A DNA stretch of 64,000 bases from a phage, in sequence record OZ335963.1; one strand, 5' to 3'. Position numbers and translations under genes: made by a program. Within the stretch, counting starts at the first letter, position 1; every line of letters starts with the position of its first letter. Below are positions 205-45,309 of this stretch, piece by piece. The notes beneath the pieces were generated by a model, which was given only the letters and a program-made list of their open reading frames with translations, searched no databases and was not told where the DNA came from.

Positions 205-567
205 TTAAAAGAATTTAAATTTTTTCTTTGACCTTTTATTAAATGCATCTTGTAGTTGCATTGTAATACATTTTTCTACATGAGGAGCTAACTCAGCTTT
301 TCTTTCTTGGTCAAGAACAGCAAAGTCCATTACAACTTTTCCATCAACCCAATCTAATTTTGTCACATACACAATGTGTGTAGAACCATCTTCTAATTTA
401 ATGACAATCTCCTGGATAACATTTTCCATGGCAGATTTAATTATCTTAAGAGATTCATTAAAAAGACGTTCTTTTCTTTCTTCTTCCCCCTCCGAAGAGG
501 GGGATTCATCGATAATTTCTAGATCTAAATCTAAATCATCTTTATTCATTAAATTCTTCCATATCAC
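205..567 (-). CDS. 40: gp40-like small acidic protein (head vertex assembly chaperone position)
   Basis: 120-aa ORF between uvsX and 41 as in T4; alternative start at 549 (MNKDD) overlaps uvsX stop in ATGA-like coupling. Confidence 0.6.
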   Translation of the reverse strand: MIWKNLMNKDDLDLDLEIIDESPSSEGEEERKERLFNESLKIIKSAMENVIQEIVIKLEDGSTHIVYVTKLDWVDGKVVMDFAVLDQERKAELAPHVEKCITMQLQDAFNKRSKKKFKFF

Positions 568-4356: not shown

Positions 4357-7053
4357 TCAGCCAAACAGGAAGTCTAACGAAGCTTTTTCCTCATAGTCCA
4401 TACCTGCTGATTCACACATGCCAGCAAGCGGTTTAACAAACGATTTTTGGAACAAAGTTGAGTAGTCAATCCAAGACAGTACATCAGAACGAATTTCTTT
4501 TGGAAGTTCTGTACCTGATGGCCAAGCAATGCACTTGTCACCAAATGGATTTCCTTCACGTAATGGAAGAACCATTACCTTATTTCCATCCAAAATTGGA
4601 GCTACACCTAAACCGTTAACAGCTCGACGATAAGTTAGCACACCACGAATATGGAATGGACATTTAAATCCTGGCCAGCCTTTATCATCATATTTCGCTA
4701 TATCGTTCGCAGTTTTTACTTCAGCAATAACTTTATAATCAAGTTGACGATATTCTTTCTCAAAGTTCTTGTAATATTCTTGGACGGACTCTTCGCCTTC
4801 CTGAAGAATACGACGAATACTTTCTTCGAGAGCTTCTTGTACTGCTTTTGGTGTTGAACTCTGCTGAGTTTCCATACCCATGATTTTTAGATGCGGTTCA
4901 GCAAATCGCTTATCTTCCATATCATAAACGTTCAGAGCATAACGTTTTTTCGCTTTCCAAAATCCACCAACACCCTTTGAACCAAGTGGAGGGCAAGAAA
5001 TAGCTTCACGGTCCATATGCATCAGATGCTCGCGGTTATTCATATAATCACATAACTCACGATATGCAACATCAATCATAGGTTCCATCTTTTTCTTACC
5101 AAACTGATTCATGAATTCAACTAAATCATTTTGTTCTTTAAAGCGGTCAAGACCTACTTTTTCAATAACTTTATCTACACAAACGTATACCGAATCAGTA
5201 TCACCTGCTGCGATGAAATCTTCACCATTAGTTCCACACACTTTGTTTAGATACTCATTAATTTTACGAGCAATCCACTGAATACCGACTTGACCGAAAA
5301 TTGTGATAGCAGTAGCATTTCGCAAATCATAGTAGCGGAAATGAATATTACCAAGAGCACCATAAAGACTGTTAATAAGAATTTTACGGTTCAGCTGATT
5401 TGTGTTAGCGAGTGTAGCTGCTTTTTCGCATTCTTCGATCAGACTATTAAGAACAGATTCGGTGTAATTCGATAATTCGTTTAAGAAATCATCACTGAAC
5501 TTAACATATCGTTCAACTTCTGGTTTAGTTGAGCAAGACCCTGCGCCTTTCATAATAATCTTTTTAATAGCTTCGGCATTCATTTCTTCCGCGAACATTT
5601 TCTTTTTCCAATCTTTACGCTGGAAAAATACTTTAGCGATTTCCTTTGGAATGATACCTTCTTGGTGCTTATCATACATCCATCCATTCGGAGAACAAGA
5701 ATATTCATCACTTGGCTTAGGAGCTGTTCCTGCGATATATTCATGAATTGGATGAACTTTAAACTGCCCGCGAATAGTCTCAGGACTAATGTTAACCTGA
5801 CGAATAATGCTAGGATACAGAGACGTCAAGTCAAAACTCATAATGTATCGACGAGCAATCGGTTTAGGTTCAAACACAAATGCACCTGGAAAACTCTGTT
5901 TAACGTGCGAACCTTGTTGAGGAATAACCTTATGTTCACCTTTCAGTGAGTTAAAAATAATAGCATCCCAAGTTTTAATAGGACTCATTACACCAGAAAA
6001 AGGCATTTTAGCGTAATAAGACATACTTAAAACTAGATCGATAAACCCACGAATTTTATCAATTGCTTGAACTGATTCTACGTCAATGATGTTATAACTA
6101 ATGTATCGTTGATGATTAGTCTCACGAAGTTTATTAATAGGACCATCGTACGGCAATTTACCTTTTTTGGTTTCATGTTGAGCAACTGATTCCAAAGAGA
6201 ACGATGGCAAATTAGTAAATGCGAATTTCTTGTATAAATCTAAATAATCAAGAATAGATACGCCATCAATAGAATAAATTTCTTTGCTACCGTACATATT
6301 TTGAATTAGTTTAGATTTTACTCGACCGATTGGAGAGAAGCGTTTCATACTACGTTCACCGAGAACCATTTTAACGCGATTCATGATATACGGAACGTCA
6401 AATCCCTCAATATTCCAACCGGTAAAAATAGCAGGTCGTTTCTGTTCCCAGAGATTAATATATTCCATGAGCATATCACGCTCATTATCAAATGGCATAT
6501 AAATTACTCGGTCAAGAATTTCTTGAGGAACTTCATCACCACCTTCACAGTCAAGCTTAGCAGCTAACTTTGCATCCCATTTTGATACTGAACCGTACAT
6601 TGAATTCAATAAATCAAAGACGTAAAAACGATCGTCAATTGAATCATAATGAGTGATAGCATCAATTTCATATTCTGCTTTCATTGGGTCAGGAAATTTA
6701 TCGCCAGTAACCTCAATGTCACAGTTAGCTACACGAACAAATTTTCGGTCATAAACAATTTCTGAACCATATGTATCACTGATATAAGCGAGTTTAAAAT
6801 CGTTCATACCGAGAGCTTCGAGACCGATGTCTTCCATTCGCTTCATCCAGTCTCGCGCATCTTTCATTGATGGAAATTTTTGAGGAGCGCAATTTTTACC
6901 ATAAATGTCTTTGTATTTTGACTCTTCCTTACAATGCCTAAACATAGTCGGAAGATATTCTACTTCGCGAGTACGTTCCTTTCCGTTTTCATCAATATAA
7001 CGCTCAACAATATTATTTCCGACTGTTTCGATAGAGATATAAAATTCTTTCAT
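4357..7053 (-). CDS. 43: DNA polymerase gp43 (family B)
   Basis: 898 aa, matches remembered T4 gp43 end to end (exonuclease and polymerase motifs). Confidence 0.97.
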   Translation of the reverse strand: MKEFYISIETVGNNIVERYIDENGKERTREVEYLPTMFRHCKEESKYKDIYGKNCAPQKFPSMKDARDWMKRMEDIGLEALGMNDFKLAYISDTYGSEIVYDRKFVRVANCDIEVTGDKFPDPMKAEYEIDAITHYDSIDDRFYVFDLLNSMYGSVSKWDAKLAAKLDCEGGDEVPQEILDRVIYMPFDNERDMLMEYINLWEQKRPAIFTGWNIEGFDVPYIMNRVKMVLGERSMKRFSPIGRVKSKLIQNMYGSKEIYSIDGVSILDYLDLYKKFAFTNLPSFSLESVAQHETKKGKLPYDGPINKLRETNHQRYISYNIIDVESVQAIDKIRGFIDLVLSMSYYAKMPFSGVMSPIKTWDAIIFNSLKGEHKVIPQQGSHVKQSFPGAFVFEPKPIARRYIMSFDLTSLYPSIIRQVNISPETIRGQFKVHPIHEYIAGTAPKPSDEYSCSPNGWMYDKHQEGIIPKEIAKVFFQRKDWKKKMFAEEMNAEAIKKIIMKGAGSCSTKPEVERYVKFSDDFLNELSNYTESVLNSLIEECEKAATLANTNQLNRKILINSLYGALGNIHFRYYDLRNATAITIFGQVGIQWIARKINEYLNKVCGTNGEDFIAAGDTDSVYVCVDKVIEKVGLDRFKEQNDLVEFMNQFGKKKMEPMIDVAYRELCDYMNNREHLMHMDREAISCPPLGSKGVGGFWKAKKRYALNVYDMEDKRFAEPHLKIMGMETQQSSTPKAVQEALEESIRRILQEGEESVQEYYKNFEKEYRQLDYKVIAEVKTANDIAKYDDKGWPGFKCPFHIRGVLTYRRAVNGLGVAPILDGNKVMVLPLREGNPFGDKCIAWPSGTELPKEIRSDVLSWIDYSTLFQKSFVKPLAGMCESAGMDYEEKASLDFLFG

Positions 7054-7090
7054 AGATATTCCTTAGTTTATAGCCCGAGTTATTAGGCTC
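7054..7090 (-). promoter_or_regulatory. gene 43 translational operator (hairpin plus Shine-Dalgarno)
   Basis: mRNA reads GAGCCUAAUAACUCGGGCUAUAAACUAAGGAAUAUCUAUG, the classic gp43 autogenous operator hairpin. Confidence 0.8.
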
Positions 7091-7111
7091 TTGATATATT
7101 ATACTCCAAAT

Positions 7112-7129
7112 AAGGGGCCGAAGCCCCTT
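7112..7129 (-). other. C(UUCG)G tetraloop hairpin (GGGGC-UUCG-GCCCC) on the early transcript
   Basis: Palindrome aaggggccgaagcccctt; minus-strand RNA loop is UUCG. Confidence 0.7.
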
Positions 7130-7131
7130 GC

Positions 7132-7365
7132 TTAAATTAATACCAGTTGTCGGTGAAAAATTGTTAATCCATCTGCATTAATTGACTTAACCACTGCGGT
7201 AAAGTGTTTTTGTTCTGGGTGAACTAATTTTTGAAATTCTACCTGAAATTTTAGTTGGAGGTTTTCTGGTAAATCAAAAAGTGTTTCTGTTGCAGAAAGA
7301 TTATATTTTTCTTTAAGGGACGCCATGTATTCTTGCGGAGTTATAGCAGTCATATTAATTACCAA
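7132..7365 (-). CDS. hypothetical protein, 77 aa, between regA and gene 43
   Basis: ORF start overlaps regA stop; I cannot place it as a T4 gene. Confidence 0.45.
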   Translation of the reverse strand: MVINMTAITPQEYMASLKEKYNLSATETLFDLPENLQLKFQVEFQKLVHPEQKHFTAVVKSINADGLTIFHRQLVLI

Positions 7366-7723
7366 TCGTATATTTAGGAACGAGTTTCCATTCGTGTTTT
7401 TGTTTAAAAGAAATAACTCGGAAGTTATTGGTTAAATCTTTCATAAAAGTTCTTTGACCAGGAACGATTTCAATCAGCCCCCAATCTTCTAACAGCCACG
7501 CAATCGAATCACGACGAACTTCATCTTCTTCTGTCATTTCAACCTGACGGCCATCCATACGAAGCATTTCTTTAAAATGAACGATATAGTATAGTCCTTT
7601 TTTCTGAAGAATATGACAGGACTGATACAGAACTTTATCTTTATTATTAGCAATTCCCATACGAGTCAAGGTTTCTTTTACTTTCAGAAAATCTTCAGGT
7701 TTTTTAAGAGTAATTTCAATCAT
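7355..7723 (-). CDS. regA: RegA translational repressor
   Basis: 122 aa, matches remembered T4 RegA. Confidence 0.93.
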   Translation of the reverse strand: MIEITLKKPEDFLKVKETLTRMGIANNKDKVLYQSCHILQKKGLYYIVHFKEMLRMDGRQVEMTEEDEVRRDSIAWLLEDWGLIEIVPGQRTFMKDLTNNFRVISFKQKHEWKLVPKYTIGN

Positions 7724-7724
7724 T

Positions 7725-8288
7725 TTACCATTCCAATGCTAGTTTTTTGAGTTGTTTCTGTTCTTTTACGTTCTTAGTCACTTCTTTTAAAAAATCATCC
7801 GTGACTAAACCTTTTAGTTCTTTTAATACTAAAGGAAGTTTTCCATTTTTAGTAAGAATTGATTTATAGTTAATTGCATCATTTGTATTAACTTGATACC
7901 GCTTAGCAAGTAACTTAATAATCAATACTTCAGTAGAATCTTCGACCAGTTTTGCCCATTTACCATATCTTTTACCACGAGGAACAGCAGCCATCAGATA
8001 ATTAAAATGGGCTTCATCGCTTAAACCTGATCCAATTAAATTCATAGCATATACAGCTGGCATGCATTCAGGAAATTGTGATAATGCATTCTCAACCATG
8101 TATTTTGAATAATCTTTTTGAGCAATAGAGCATTTAGTTTTATTATTAATAGCTCCAATTATTTCAAAAAATTCATTTTCAGCTTTTTCCTTAAAAGAAT
8201 CAGCAGCAGATTGGACAGCTGTCCAATCTTTTGAATACCAAGCAACTTGATGCTCGTTTAATTGAATATCATCTTCAAATAAGCTCAT
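7725..8288 (-). CDS. 62: clamp loader small subunit gp62
   Basis: 187 aa, T4 position and length. Confidence 0.9.
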
Positions 8289-8289
8289 A

Positions 8290-9249
8290 TCACTTCCACT
8301 GCATTTCGCATGCCAATTGAATGAAAAGATATGCTAAATGTAATTCCGTATTAGCCGCAATTCCATGATACTGGTTATTTTCACCAACAATTTCATACAT
8401 ACGAATAATACTTTGCGGAGTTACGCGTGTATAGATTTCTTCGGCAAGTTTACCTACGAACCACGAATAATCAGCTGCATATTTTGGCGCTAAAGCTCTG
8501 AGCTGTTTAACATCTTTATTTTTGAGAGATTCAAGAACATCATCAATAGCACCACGATCGTTAGTAACCAGTGATAAAATACCAGCATCCAAAACACCTT
8601 TAGATGAATAACTATCGAGCTCGCCAATAGTTTTACGAAAATCAGGAAAATTCTTTTTAACCAAAGCTGCTACAACTTTCATATCAGCTATAGCAATTCC
8701 TTCATGCTTGCAGATTTCAGTCAATCGACGAATCATCTGCTTCATCATTTCAATTTTATCTTCATCAGTCGGTTGACCGAACGTAATAACTCGGCAGCGT
8801 GACTGAAGCGGTTTAATAATACCATCAATATTGTTAGCAGTAATAATAATACTACAGTTTGAACTATAAGCTTCCATAAAGGAACGAAGATGCCGCTGAG
8901 ACTCTGCTAACCCTGAACGGTCAAATTCATCAATAACGATTACTTTTTGACGACCATCAAATGAAGCTGCGCTAGCAAAATTAGTCAAAGGACCACGAAC
9001 GAAATCAATTTTACAATCTGACCCATTTACAAACATCATATCAGCATTTACATCATGACACAATGCTTTTGCTACAGTTGTTTTACCTGTTCCTGGAGAA
9101 GGAGAATGAAGAATAATATGTGGAATCTTACCTTTACTTGTAATAGATTTAAAGGTTTCTTTATCAAAGGCGGGAAGAATACATTCATCGATAGTAGATG
9201 GACGATATTTCTGTTCAAGAATGTGTTCTTTTTCATTTACAGTAATCAT
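8290..9249 (-). CDS. 44: clamp loader ATPase gp44
   Basis: Start at [17 protein letters not shown] with GAGGA Shine-Dalgarno; Walker A GTGKTT; 319 aa. Confidence 0.93.
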
Positions 9250-9281
9250 AATTTCCTCATTCAAGTTTTAGTGTAAATTAT

Positions 9282-9299
9282 AAAGGGCCGAAGCCCTTT
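9282..9299 (-). other. C(UUCG)G hairpin between genes 45 and 44
   Basis: aaagggccgaagcccttt; same element recurs at 13992 and 17632. Confidence 0.7.
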
Positions 9300-9300
9300 A

Positions 9301-9987
9301 TTAAAAATCGTGGGTAGAATCAGCTTCAAGAGCTACTACATAATTCGCATGTTCACCTTCAAATTTAGCAGCACCTTGTTTACCTTTTGCCCAGAGCAGA
9401 AGTTTATAATTTCCTGGTTGCATTTTCATATTTGCCATATTGATAATGAAATTAAATGTATTTTCACCATCATAATCACCAAGAGTCAAAGAATATTTAA
9501 CACGGGTCAAAGCAGAATCTTCTACTTTGTTAAAACCGTTAATTACGATTTTACCTTCTTTTACTGTGATAGCAATTGTATCAATCTGCAGACCACGAGA
9601 TACACGCAACAGCTGTTGAAGGTCTTCAGCTTTAATTTCGGTAACAACAGATGCTACCGGGAATGGAATTGGTTTATTAGGAGCAACTACTGTACTTGGA
9701 TCGGCTGCTGGCCAAAAAATTGTTGAACGAGCATCAGCAATTTTAATATTTCCATCTTCTGACTGGGAAATTTCTGCATCGTCATTAACTAGGGACAGAA
9801 TACCGAGAAAACCGTTCAAATCGTAAATTGCTACATCAAAATCAATGGTGTCAGAAATATTTGCTTCCGCATAAGTTGTACCATTAACTGCGCGAGTCAT
9901 AATAAATTGACCGGATTTAAGCATAATACCAGAGTTAATAGTAGCGAAATTTTTAAGCAGAGCAGTAGTATCTTTAGACAGTTTCAT
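9301..9987 (-). CDS. 45: sliding clamp gp45
   Basis: 228 aa, matches remembered T4 gp45. Confidence 0.95.
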   Translation of the reverse strand: MKLSKDTTALLKNFATINSGIMLKSGQFIMTRAVNGTTYAEANISDTIDFDVAIYDLNGFLGILSLVNDDAEISQSEDGNIKIADARSTIFWPAADPSTVVAPNKPIPFPVASVVTEIKAEDLQQLLRVSRGLQIDTIAITVKEGKIVINGFNKVEDSALTRVKYSLTLGDYDGENTFNFIINMANMKMQPGNYKLLLWAKGKQGAAKFEGEHANYVVALEADSTHDF

Positions 9988-13991: not shown

Positions 13992-14009
13992 AAAGGGCCG
14001 AAGCCCTTT
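13992..14009 (-). other. C(UUCG)G hairpin overlapping the alpha-gt stop codon
   Basis: aaagggccgaagcccttt. Confidence 0.65.
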
Positions 14010-15260: not shown

Positions 15261-15280
15261 ATAGGAGCCGAAGCTCCTAT
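15261..15280 (-). other. C(UUCG)G hairpin (GGAGC-UUCG-GCUCC)
   Basis: ataggagccgaagctcctat. Confidence 0.6.
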
Positions 15281-17631: not shown

Positions 17632-17647
17632 AAGGGCCGAAGCCCTT
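17632..17647 (-). terminator. C(UUCG)G hairpin followed by U-run
   Basis: aagggccgaagccctt overlapping the stop of ORF 17646-17846, followed by UUUUGG on the transcript. Confidence 0.55.
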
Positions 17648-31512: not shown

Positions 31513-31530
31513 GGGAGCCCGAAGGCTCCC
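31513..31530 (-). terminator. C(UUCG)G hairpin terminator
   Basis: GGGAGCC-UUCG-GGCUCCC followed by U-run. Confidence 0.7.
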
Positions 31531-35055: not shown

Positions 35056-35071
35056 GTCTCCCGAAGGAGAC
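35056..35071 (-). terminator. C(UUCG)G hairpin terminator
   Basis: GUCUCC-UUCG-GGAGAC followed by U6. Confidence 0.7.
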
Positions 35072-45291: not shown

Positions 45292-45309
45292 AAGGGGCCG
45301 AAGCCCCTT
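45292..45309 (-). other. C(UUCG)G hairpin
   Basis: aaggggccgaagcccctt between two ORFs. Confidence 0.65.

Follow-up and report, generated by a model that had tools for sequence, protein, structure and literature searches.

The interval between regA, the gene of a translational repressor, and gene 43, that of the DNA polymerase, raises a simple question in the phage of sequence record OZ335963.1: is the reading frame that fills it a new gene, a known one, or no gene at all? The stretch of DNA analysed here (the window, 64,000 nt) is a T4-like (Tequatrovirus) segment whose replication cluster lies on the minus strand, as read from its list of open reading frames (ORFs); no identical record was found in the databases, the top matches having ~97-97.7% identity over 24 kb. 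An initial annotation, made from the letters of the window, had pointed to a 77-aa ORF at this place, and the frame is indeed there: for the 301 nt that separate regA from gene 43 the sole long open frame is 7132-7365 on the minus strand, 77 codons counted from a TTG in the ORF list, and this TTG overlaps, in another frame, the final regA codons and stop, as had also been noted. The features of the locus, from the upstream end of the cluster to gene 43, are these:

9301-9987, minus strand: gene 45 (ORF list)
8290-9264, minus strand: gene 44 (ORF list)
7725-8288, minus strand: gene 62 (ORF list)
7355-7723, minus strand: regA, translational repressor, the upstream cistron (ORF list)
7354-7365, minus strand: 5' extension of the frame to TTG, overlapping the regA 3' end (ORF list only)
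7351-7357, minus strand: regA stop/orf43.1 start junction, UAA-U-AUG (read from the sequence)
7132-7353, minus strand: orf43.1 coding sequence, 73 codons and TAA, ATG at 7353-7351 and stop at 7134-7132 (Pfam, PHROG, GenBank, pN/pS)
7112-7129, minus strand: hairpin AAGGGGC(UUCG)GCCCCUU, in which 7129-7123 pairs with 7118-7112 around a UUCG loop (minimum free energy fold)
7098-7107, minus strand: GGAGTATAAT, a conserved -10-like element, 3' of the hairpin and 5' of the gene 43 operator (conservation)
7072-7089, minus strand: gene 43 translational operator hairpin, 18 nt, with a 5-bp stem and the loop AAUAACUC (fold)
4357-7053, minus strand: gene 43, DNA polymerase of 898 aa, the downstream gene (ORF list and GenBank annotations of matching records)

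Identity, start codon and selection

The frame had been taken as unplaced and perhaps new, a view that did not survive comparison with the family databases. Pfam PF25760, "Phage RB18 ORF43.1 protein", recognises the 73-aa product with a score of 101.5 bits (the curated Pfam gathering threshold is 27 bits), residues 5-73 aligning to profile positions 1-69 of 69, and PHROG 3826, a family of unknown function, does so with an E value of 2.4e-37 over residues 1-73 of 73. The gene is annotated in hundreds of T4 relatives: in the GenBank record of ime09 it is gp43.1, "uncharacterized protein ORF43.1, in regA 3' region", and in those of RB14 and RB51 it is "similar to RB18 43.1". The window protein is 96-100% identical to orf43.1 of RB18, ime09 and HMD-9. 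Like the RB18-type product it has 73 aa, and its gene likewise sits between regA and gene 43; the two differ by a few conservative substitutions in the C-terminal strand, and the window form is a member of this type with no material difference. Judged from these matches, the window ORF is orf43.1, an already named accessory gene of T-even-type phages and a real gene of 73 codons. The name presumably traces to Miller and Jozwik, who in the Journal of Bacteriology in 1990 reportedly described a conserved regA as against a variable orf43.1. A literature search on orf43.1 and PF25760 returned no relevant match, a search of NCBIfam no match, and the defence-system models of PADLOC no match at E up to 1 for three orf43.1 alleles. 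With the gene annotated as hypothetical in hundreds of genomes, and Pfam and PHROG families in existence, its presence is of little value as a finding in itself.

On the minus strand the junction with regA reads ATT GGT AAT TAA T ATG ACT, with an ATG 1 nt past the regA TAA. This ATG is the start annotated in GenBank for near-identical phages, at the same coordinates in ime09, HY01, RB14 and others, and orf43.1 of Kanagawavirus and Karamvirus has no in-frame start codon upstream of it. Because GenBank annotations use the ATG and it is conserved across genera, translation almost certainly begins at the ATG at 7353 (73 aa), not at the TTG at 7365, and the TTG extension at 7354-7365 is probably an artefact of mechanical ORF calling that lies outside the translated orf43.1.

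Length alone is weak evidence of a gene at this locus, as a stop-free run of at least 73 codons arose in 333 of 5000 shuffles (6.7%) of the 301-nt interval, and the case rests on conservation and codon-position pattern. Among 11 alleles of the window type there are 27 polymorphic sites, which fall 8:2:17 on codon positions 1, 2 and 3 and yield a pooled pN/pS of 0.11; a comparison of 8 sequences gave a pN/pS of 0.12 at a pS of 0.14 for orf43.1 and, at similar pS, values of 0.025 for regA and 0.008 for the 5' end of gene 43. The gene is under purifying selection, weaker than that on its essential neighbours. Alleles from five genera, whose DNA can hardly be aligned, are 16-49% identical in protein and share one motif pattern, LK..(Y/F)GL....Q(T/S)(L/V)FDL(P/S)E..QIEFQKEF..L..P..K.F.A.VK....DG.....R.T(V/I)EI. 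A frame without function, whether open by chance, decaying, or serving as spacer RNA between regA and the hairpin, would accommodate the equally long runs in the shuffles, the absence of the ORF from half of the close relatives, the nonsense and frameshift mutations of some isolates and the lack of an assigned function. It is nevertheless extremely improbable in view of the distribution of polymorphism over codon positions with its low pN/pS (0.11-0.12), of a protein family that can be recognised across five genera at such low identity, and of a confident predicted fold that BFVD models of distant members reproduce (see below). A chance ORF is rejected on the codon-position and cross-genus evidence, not on length.

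Distribution of orf43.1 and the ORF-less state of T4

The flanks formed by regA and gene 43 match ~505 Tequatrovirus records, 178 of which carry the RB18-type allele of the window and 69 an RB51-type allele of 78 aa, ~40% identical to that of the window; the remaining roughly half, T4, T2, T6 and AR1 among them, have a 78-nt intergenic region and no ORF. The interval is variable among T-even phages, with two alleles and an ORF-less state, and the view that T4 has no gene here was correct, there being 78 nt and no ORF between its regA and gene 43. The accompanying doubt, that an identical ORF might already be annotated in T4, proved unfounded for T4 itself and justified for its relatives, hundreds of which have an equivalent annotated ORF. 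From the hairpin through GGAGTATAAT, the operator hairpin and the Shine-Dalgarno sequence to the start of gene 43, T4 and the window are base-for-base identical; the difference is that the regA TAA of T4 is joined directly to GCAAGGGG, whereas the window has 223 extra nt, comprising the ORF and the junction.

The RB51-type protein and gp047 of JS98 (71 aa) belong to the same Pfam family, with scores of 104-105 bits, occupy the same slot and both end in (I/V)EI-stop, after which come GCAA and the UUCG hairpin, yet they are only 40-42% identical to the window protein. Relative to the window, five residues are inserted in helix 1 of the RB51 type, and a 10-nt gap that carries a UAAGGU Shine-Dalgarno sequence takes the place of the 1-nt junction, UAAUAUG. 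For the RB18 type the nearest form is that of Kanagawavirus, for the RB51 type that of Dhakavirus (~49%, versus ~40% between the two types), an affinity that is only suggestive over ~70 residues. orf43.1 may have been exchanged laterally as a cassette through its conserved flanks.

Beyond Tequatrovirus, members of PF25760 occupy the slot in JS98 (Dhakavirus), VR25 (Gaprivervirus), IME523 (Kanagawavirus) and CkP1 (Karamvirus), and the order regA, ORF, hairpin, gene 43 is kept in Tequatrovirus (with both alleles), in these four genera and in two metagenomic contigs. The examples of Mosigvirus, Jiaodavirus and Krischvirus have no ORF in the slot, and the family was found outside the regA-gene 43 slot in none of the contexts examined. 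An exhaustive profile search of 1.84 billion representatives recovered 7 family clusters at 50% identity (two long proteins that also matched were spurious), word-indexed searches recovered 7 clusters for each of two alleles, and an IMG/VR single-protein scan one locus only. With only 7 clusters in the exhaustive search, the family is confined to these phages.

The initial annotation had suggested a lineage-specific insertion into the replication operon, which probably has the direction of change wrong. In alignment, the window sequence with the ORF cut out between the stop contexts TAATTAA and TAATTTAA is the T4 sequence: GGTAATTAA|TATG...TTAATTTAA|GCAAGGGG becomes GGTAATTAAGCAAGGGG, with a junction that reads GGTAATTAA|GCAAGGGG. 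The Klebsiella phage P545 (Marfavirus, L007) likewise has no ORF and bears a relic, GATTTAAGCAA, after the regA stop; its post-regA sequence TAAAGATTTAAGCAATGGGAC retains ATTTAAGCAA, which follows orf43.1 in other genera, and looks like the footprint of the 3' end of a deleted orf43.1. Since the family fills the same slot in at least five genera of Tevenvirinae and Marfavirus has this relic, the ORF-less state of T4 is more likely a loss, and the gene would be old at this site and probably ancestral. The T4 arrangement, with its clean deletion junction, would have arisen by precise removal of the ORF between the two stop-codon contexts.

Degenerate forms also occur. PhiZZ23, a Citrobacter phage (L021), has a stop at Q41 (CAA to TAA at nucleotide 121 of the ORF); frameshifted forms of 55 and 62 aa are found in JB75 and in a metagenomic form; and the 127-aa annotation in KK4/GADU22 reads through the orf43.1 stop into the hairpin and the operator. 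Any of these disruptions may be a sequencing error and not a mutation. Because the gene is absent from T4, T2, T6 and about half of Tequatrovirus and is broken in a few isolates, it is dispensable.

In Enterobacter phage KMB20 (Karamvirus, L010:1566-1727) a 53-aa ORF in the slot overlaps the regA stop and is not matched by PF25760, while its EEQIERQKE stretch and AAQI-stop end recall the orf43.1 family. Its candidacy as an orf43.1 homologue was dropped at an hhalign probability of 9% against the family profile, too weak a value; it may be a degenerate remnant.

Intercistronic regions are known targets of homing endonuclease genes (PMC2993671), and presence or absence of orf43.1 with clean junctions at short repeats, deeply diverged alleles within near-identical flanks and the HNH endonuclease gene that a Gelderlandvirus has between regA and gene 43 are what might be expected if it were carried as cargo by a homing-endonuclease cassette with the regA-gene 43 region as its target, or were what is left of one, and persisted selfishly. 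This is very improbable: neither Pfam nor NCBIfam detects a nuclease domain or motif in the protein, which at 73 aa is too small to be one, no endonuclease gene adjoins orf43.1 in any carrier genome examined, and the HNH gene is inserted elsewhere, downstream of the hairpin and the -10 element.

The latter gene, in Salmonella phage CF-SP2 (Gelderlandvirus, L009:1615-2319), is a 234-aa HNH ORF (PF01844) between regA and gene 43. It follows a UACG hairpin and a -10 element, with its ATG overlapping TATAAT, and no operator sequence of the T4 type can be made out ahead of gene 43 in this phage.

The regA junction and the downstream hairpin

Leaving the RB51 type aside, at most 1 nt separates the start of orf43.1 from the regA stop in the genera and contigs that keep this gene order, with a 1-nt gap or a 1-nt overlap in JS98, VR25, IME523, CkP1 and the loci L025 and L026, and in the window the only Shine-Dalgarno sequence available to it is a GGU ~8-10 nt upstream. 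The coupled T4 cistrons 44-62-regA, with their UAAUG or UAANAUG junctions, have the same stop-start gap of at most 1 nt, a weak Shine-Dalgarno sequence and a shared transcript, and the window pairs 44/62 and 62/regA also have 1-nt gaps; for regA/orf43.1, coupling is predicted. Because the AUG lies 1 nt past the UAA and has almost no Shine-Dalgarno sequence, reinitiation by ribosomes that finish regA is the most likely way for orf43.1 to be translated, and the junction is likely a termination-reinitiation (translational coupling) site. In the prereplicative 45-44-62-regA transcription unit orf43.1 would come last, its output tied to RegA synthesis. Escherichia phage G9062 (L019) has a 5-nt duplication, TAATTAAATTAATATG, that widens the gap between regA and orf43.1 from 1 to 6 nt, a natural variant that can be used to test translational coupling.

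RegA might itself act at this junction. Its operators, including that of dexA, AAAAUUUAAUGUUU, are quoted in PMC3014915. A RegA operator is unstructured and AU-rich, takes in the AUG and carries an A tract on its 5' side, with the SELEX consensus AAAAUUGUUAUGUAA. Compared by eye with the quoted operators (PMC3014915), the start region of orf43.1, GGUAAUUAAUAUGACU, shows AU-richness and contains the AUG, with no poly(A) tract; it is possible, from this loose likeness, that RegA represses orf43.1 too.

A closer relation, in which the orf43.1 product is a partner of RegA that modulates its RNA-binding specificity or its dimer-monomer balance and is made in fixed ratio to it through coupling, would suit the stop/start junction with regA that is conserved in all carrier genera, the failure to find the family at any other site, and the start region UAAUUAAUAUG, AU-rich like the dexA operator (PMC3014915). 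Covariation with RegA and gp43 was checked over two allele classes and one ORF-less state, a sample in which subtle co-adaptation might be missed. RegA of the window phage is 100% identical to that of T4, which has no ORF and in which RegA works all the same; in RB51-type phages the last 66 nt of regA are ~98% identical even though the ORF is ~40% identical; and the N-terminus of gp43 is almost invariant among phages with the window allele. Because RegA hardly varies across the ORF states, a co-evolved interface with it is unlikely, and we consider this partnership quite improbable.

Downstream, the stop of orf43.1 sits 2 nt upstream of the C(UUCG)G hairpin, where the initial annotation had the frame end. 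In a fold taken over 7040-7145 of the minus strand the hairpin at 7112-7129 has a 7-bp GC-rich stem, a UUCG loop and the tail UUAUUUGG, and a consensus scan found no terminator. It is kept in all genera examined, always 2-4 nt past the preceding stop, be it that of regA or of orf43.1, so that in T4 the same hairpin stands directly 3' of the regA stop. Base changes in its stem compensate one another (GGGGC/GCCCC in some genera, GGGAC/GTCCC in others; either A-U or U-A as the closing pair), and IME523 and CF-SP2 have a UACG loop on a different stem. The hairpin would mark where the regA/orf43.1 unit ends, either by stabilising the RNA or by weak termination; the message would end or be stabilised there, 2 nt past the orf43.1 stop.

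Beyond the hairpin the order is GGAGTATAAT, operator hairpin, Shine-Dalgarno sequence and gene 43 ATG. GGAGTATAAT is invariant in Tequatro-, Dhaka-, Mosig-, Marfa-, Jiaoda-, Karam- and Kanagawavirus and is replaced by GTAGTATAAT in VR25; a sigma-70 scan found no -35 partner for it, and we regard it as a candidate promoter element of gene 43. As a block, the UUCG hairpin, GGAGTATAAT and the operator are conserved in at least seven genera of Tevenvirinae. The operator hairpin is identical in T4, RB51 and the window, the 18-base T4 gene 43 operator having been described earlier (PMC3014915). Being upstream of both the hairpin and GGAGTATAAT, orf43.1 would belong to the regA unit and lie outside the gene 43 leader.

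The DNA of the hairpin loop, GCTTCG, stands at about -33 to -28 relative to TATAAT (window 7098-7129, minus strand). The MotA box is TGCTTtA, and the hairpin DNA, at the position of such a box, may double as part of a middle promoter of gene 43.

Over the whole window, 9 of the 19 occurrences of CTTCGG on the minus strand, and none of the 16 on the plus strand, are flanked by at least four further complementary bases on each side, a strong bias to the minus (sense) strand that agrees with the sense-strand bias reported for C(UUCG)G in T4 (PMC7165471). Most of these hairpins stand where a gene finishes, as between genes 45 and 44:

488-501, minus strand: C(UUCG)G hairpin
7114-7127, minus strand: C(UUCG)G hairpin
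9284-9297, minus strand: C(UUCG)G hairpin
13994-14007, minus strand: C(UUCG)G hairpin
15264-15277, minus strand: C(UUCG)G hairpin
17633-17646, minus strand: C(UUCG)G hairpin
31515-31528, minus strand: C(UUCG)G hairpin
35057-35070, minus strand: C(UUCG)G hairpin
45294-45307, minus strand: C(UUCG)G hairpin

Predicted fold and possible roles of the protein

The AlphaFold2 model of the orf43.1 protein (pLDDT 87.3, pTM 0.69) has helices at residues 6-16 and 30-44 and strands at 50-58 and 64-72, a predicted compact helix-helix-beta-hairpin domain. BFVD models of family members superpose on it at TM 0.82-0.91, the BFVD fold matches being only family members and uncharacterised proteins of Edwardsiella phage PEi26 and phage VR25, and no relative of the predicted fold was found among solved structures. 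Members of PF25760 have ~68-79 aa and end in (V/I)E(I/L/V), most of them in VEI, where the window protein ends in VLI; the protein is neutral to acidic (pI 4.8-6.6) and shows no catalytic or nucleic-acid-binding signature.

The amino acid polymorphism of the RB18-type allele (L63M, H67T, L70M/I, V71A) lies nearly all in the C-terminal beta-strand (window 7132-7167, minus strand, the last 11 codons). Residues 1-43 are invariant in amino acid sequence in all 11 sequences save for the PhiZZ23 Q41stop, despite a pS of ~0.14.

Because the protein is small, neutral to acidic and free of catalytic or nucleic-acid-binding signatures, it would most likely act stoichiometrically, by binding another protein. 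Taken together, we consider it quite probable that orf43.1 is an accessory gene under purifying selection, coupled to regA and encoding a protein-binding product, and that the state of T4 came about by precise deletion. As to the partner, a host or competitor factor, which would make orf43.1 an accessory function of conditional use, is more likely than a core replisome component; we infer this because RegA is identical in phages with the window allele and in T4, regA of the RB51 type is ~98% identical over its last 66 nt, and the gp43 N-terminus is almost invariant among phages with the window allele.

The replisome itself is the other place to look. In every genome examined orf43.1 lies inside the clamp, clamp-loader and polymerase operon, a strict synteny across genera that could point to some replication-linked role, and its near-invariant T-L-F-D-L-P-E motif (Q-x-[LVI]-F-D-L in other alleles) resembles both the clamp-binding tail of RB69 gp43, SLFDMFDF, and the QLxLxL clamp motifs of bacteria; gp43 of the window ends in SLDFLFG. 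An accessory that binds gp45 or the host beta clamp through [ST]-[LV]-F-D-L and so competes with or tunes polymerase loading can be envisaged from these likenesses, against which the model places TLFDLPE internally (residues 24-30), in a folded segment (pLDDT ~88-91) that supplies the turn and the N-cap for helix 2. With its hydrophobic staple residues, D-L-P-E makes a typical helix capping box, and this accounts structurally for its conservation; VR25 has W-I-N-L-P instead, and known clamp tails have a second aromatic residue that the motif lacks. Together with the dispensability of the gene, and with gp43 and RegA that stay constant regardless of its presence, this makes clamp binding improbable in our estimate, and the motif idea was down-weighted since the motif is internal and accounted for by the capping box. 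That orf43.1 is, more generally, a dedicated regulator of the replication cluster, which is made in step with RegA, binds clamp, polymerase or RegA and alters replisome assembly or translational repression in about half of the T-even phages, those that have it, we regard as unlikely.

T4 is the only well-profiled phage of the group and has no orf43.1, and at the regA-gene 43 locus it is not representative of its genus. The locus offers a clean natural experiment, with two alleles ~40% identical and an absent state within flanks ~98% identical, and the three states would allow an easy isogenic comparison through which a function could be assigned. The upside would be modest if the protein acts on the replication or translation-control machinery encoded alongside it; were the gene a regulator of the replication cluster, T4 would be a natural knockout of a conserved component of the replication operon.
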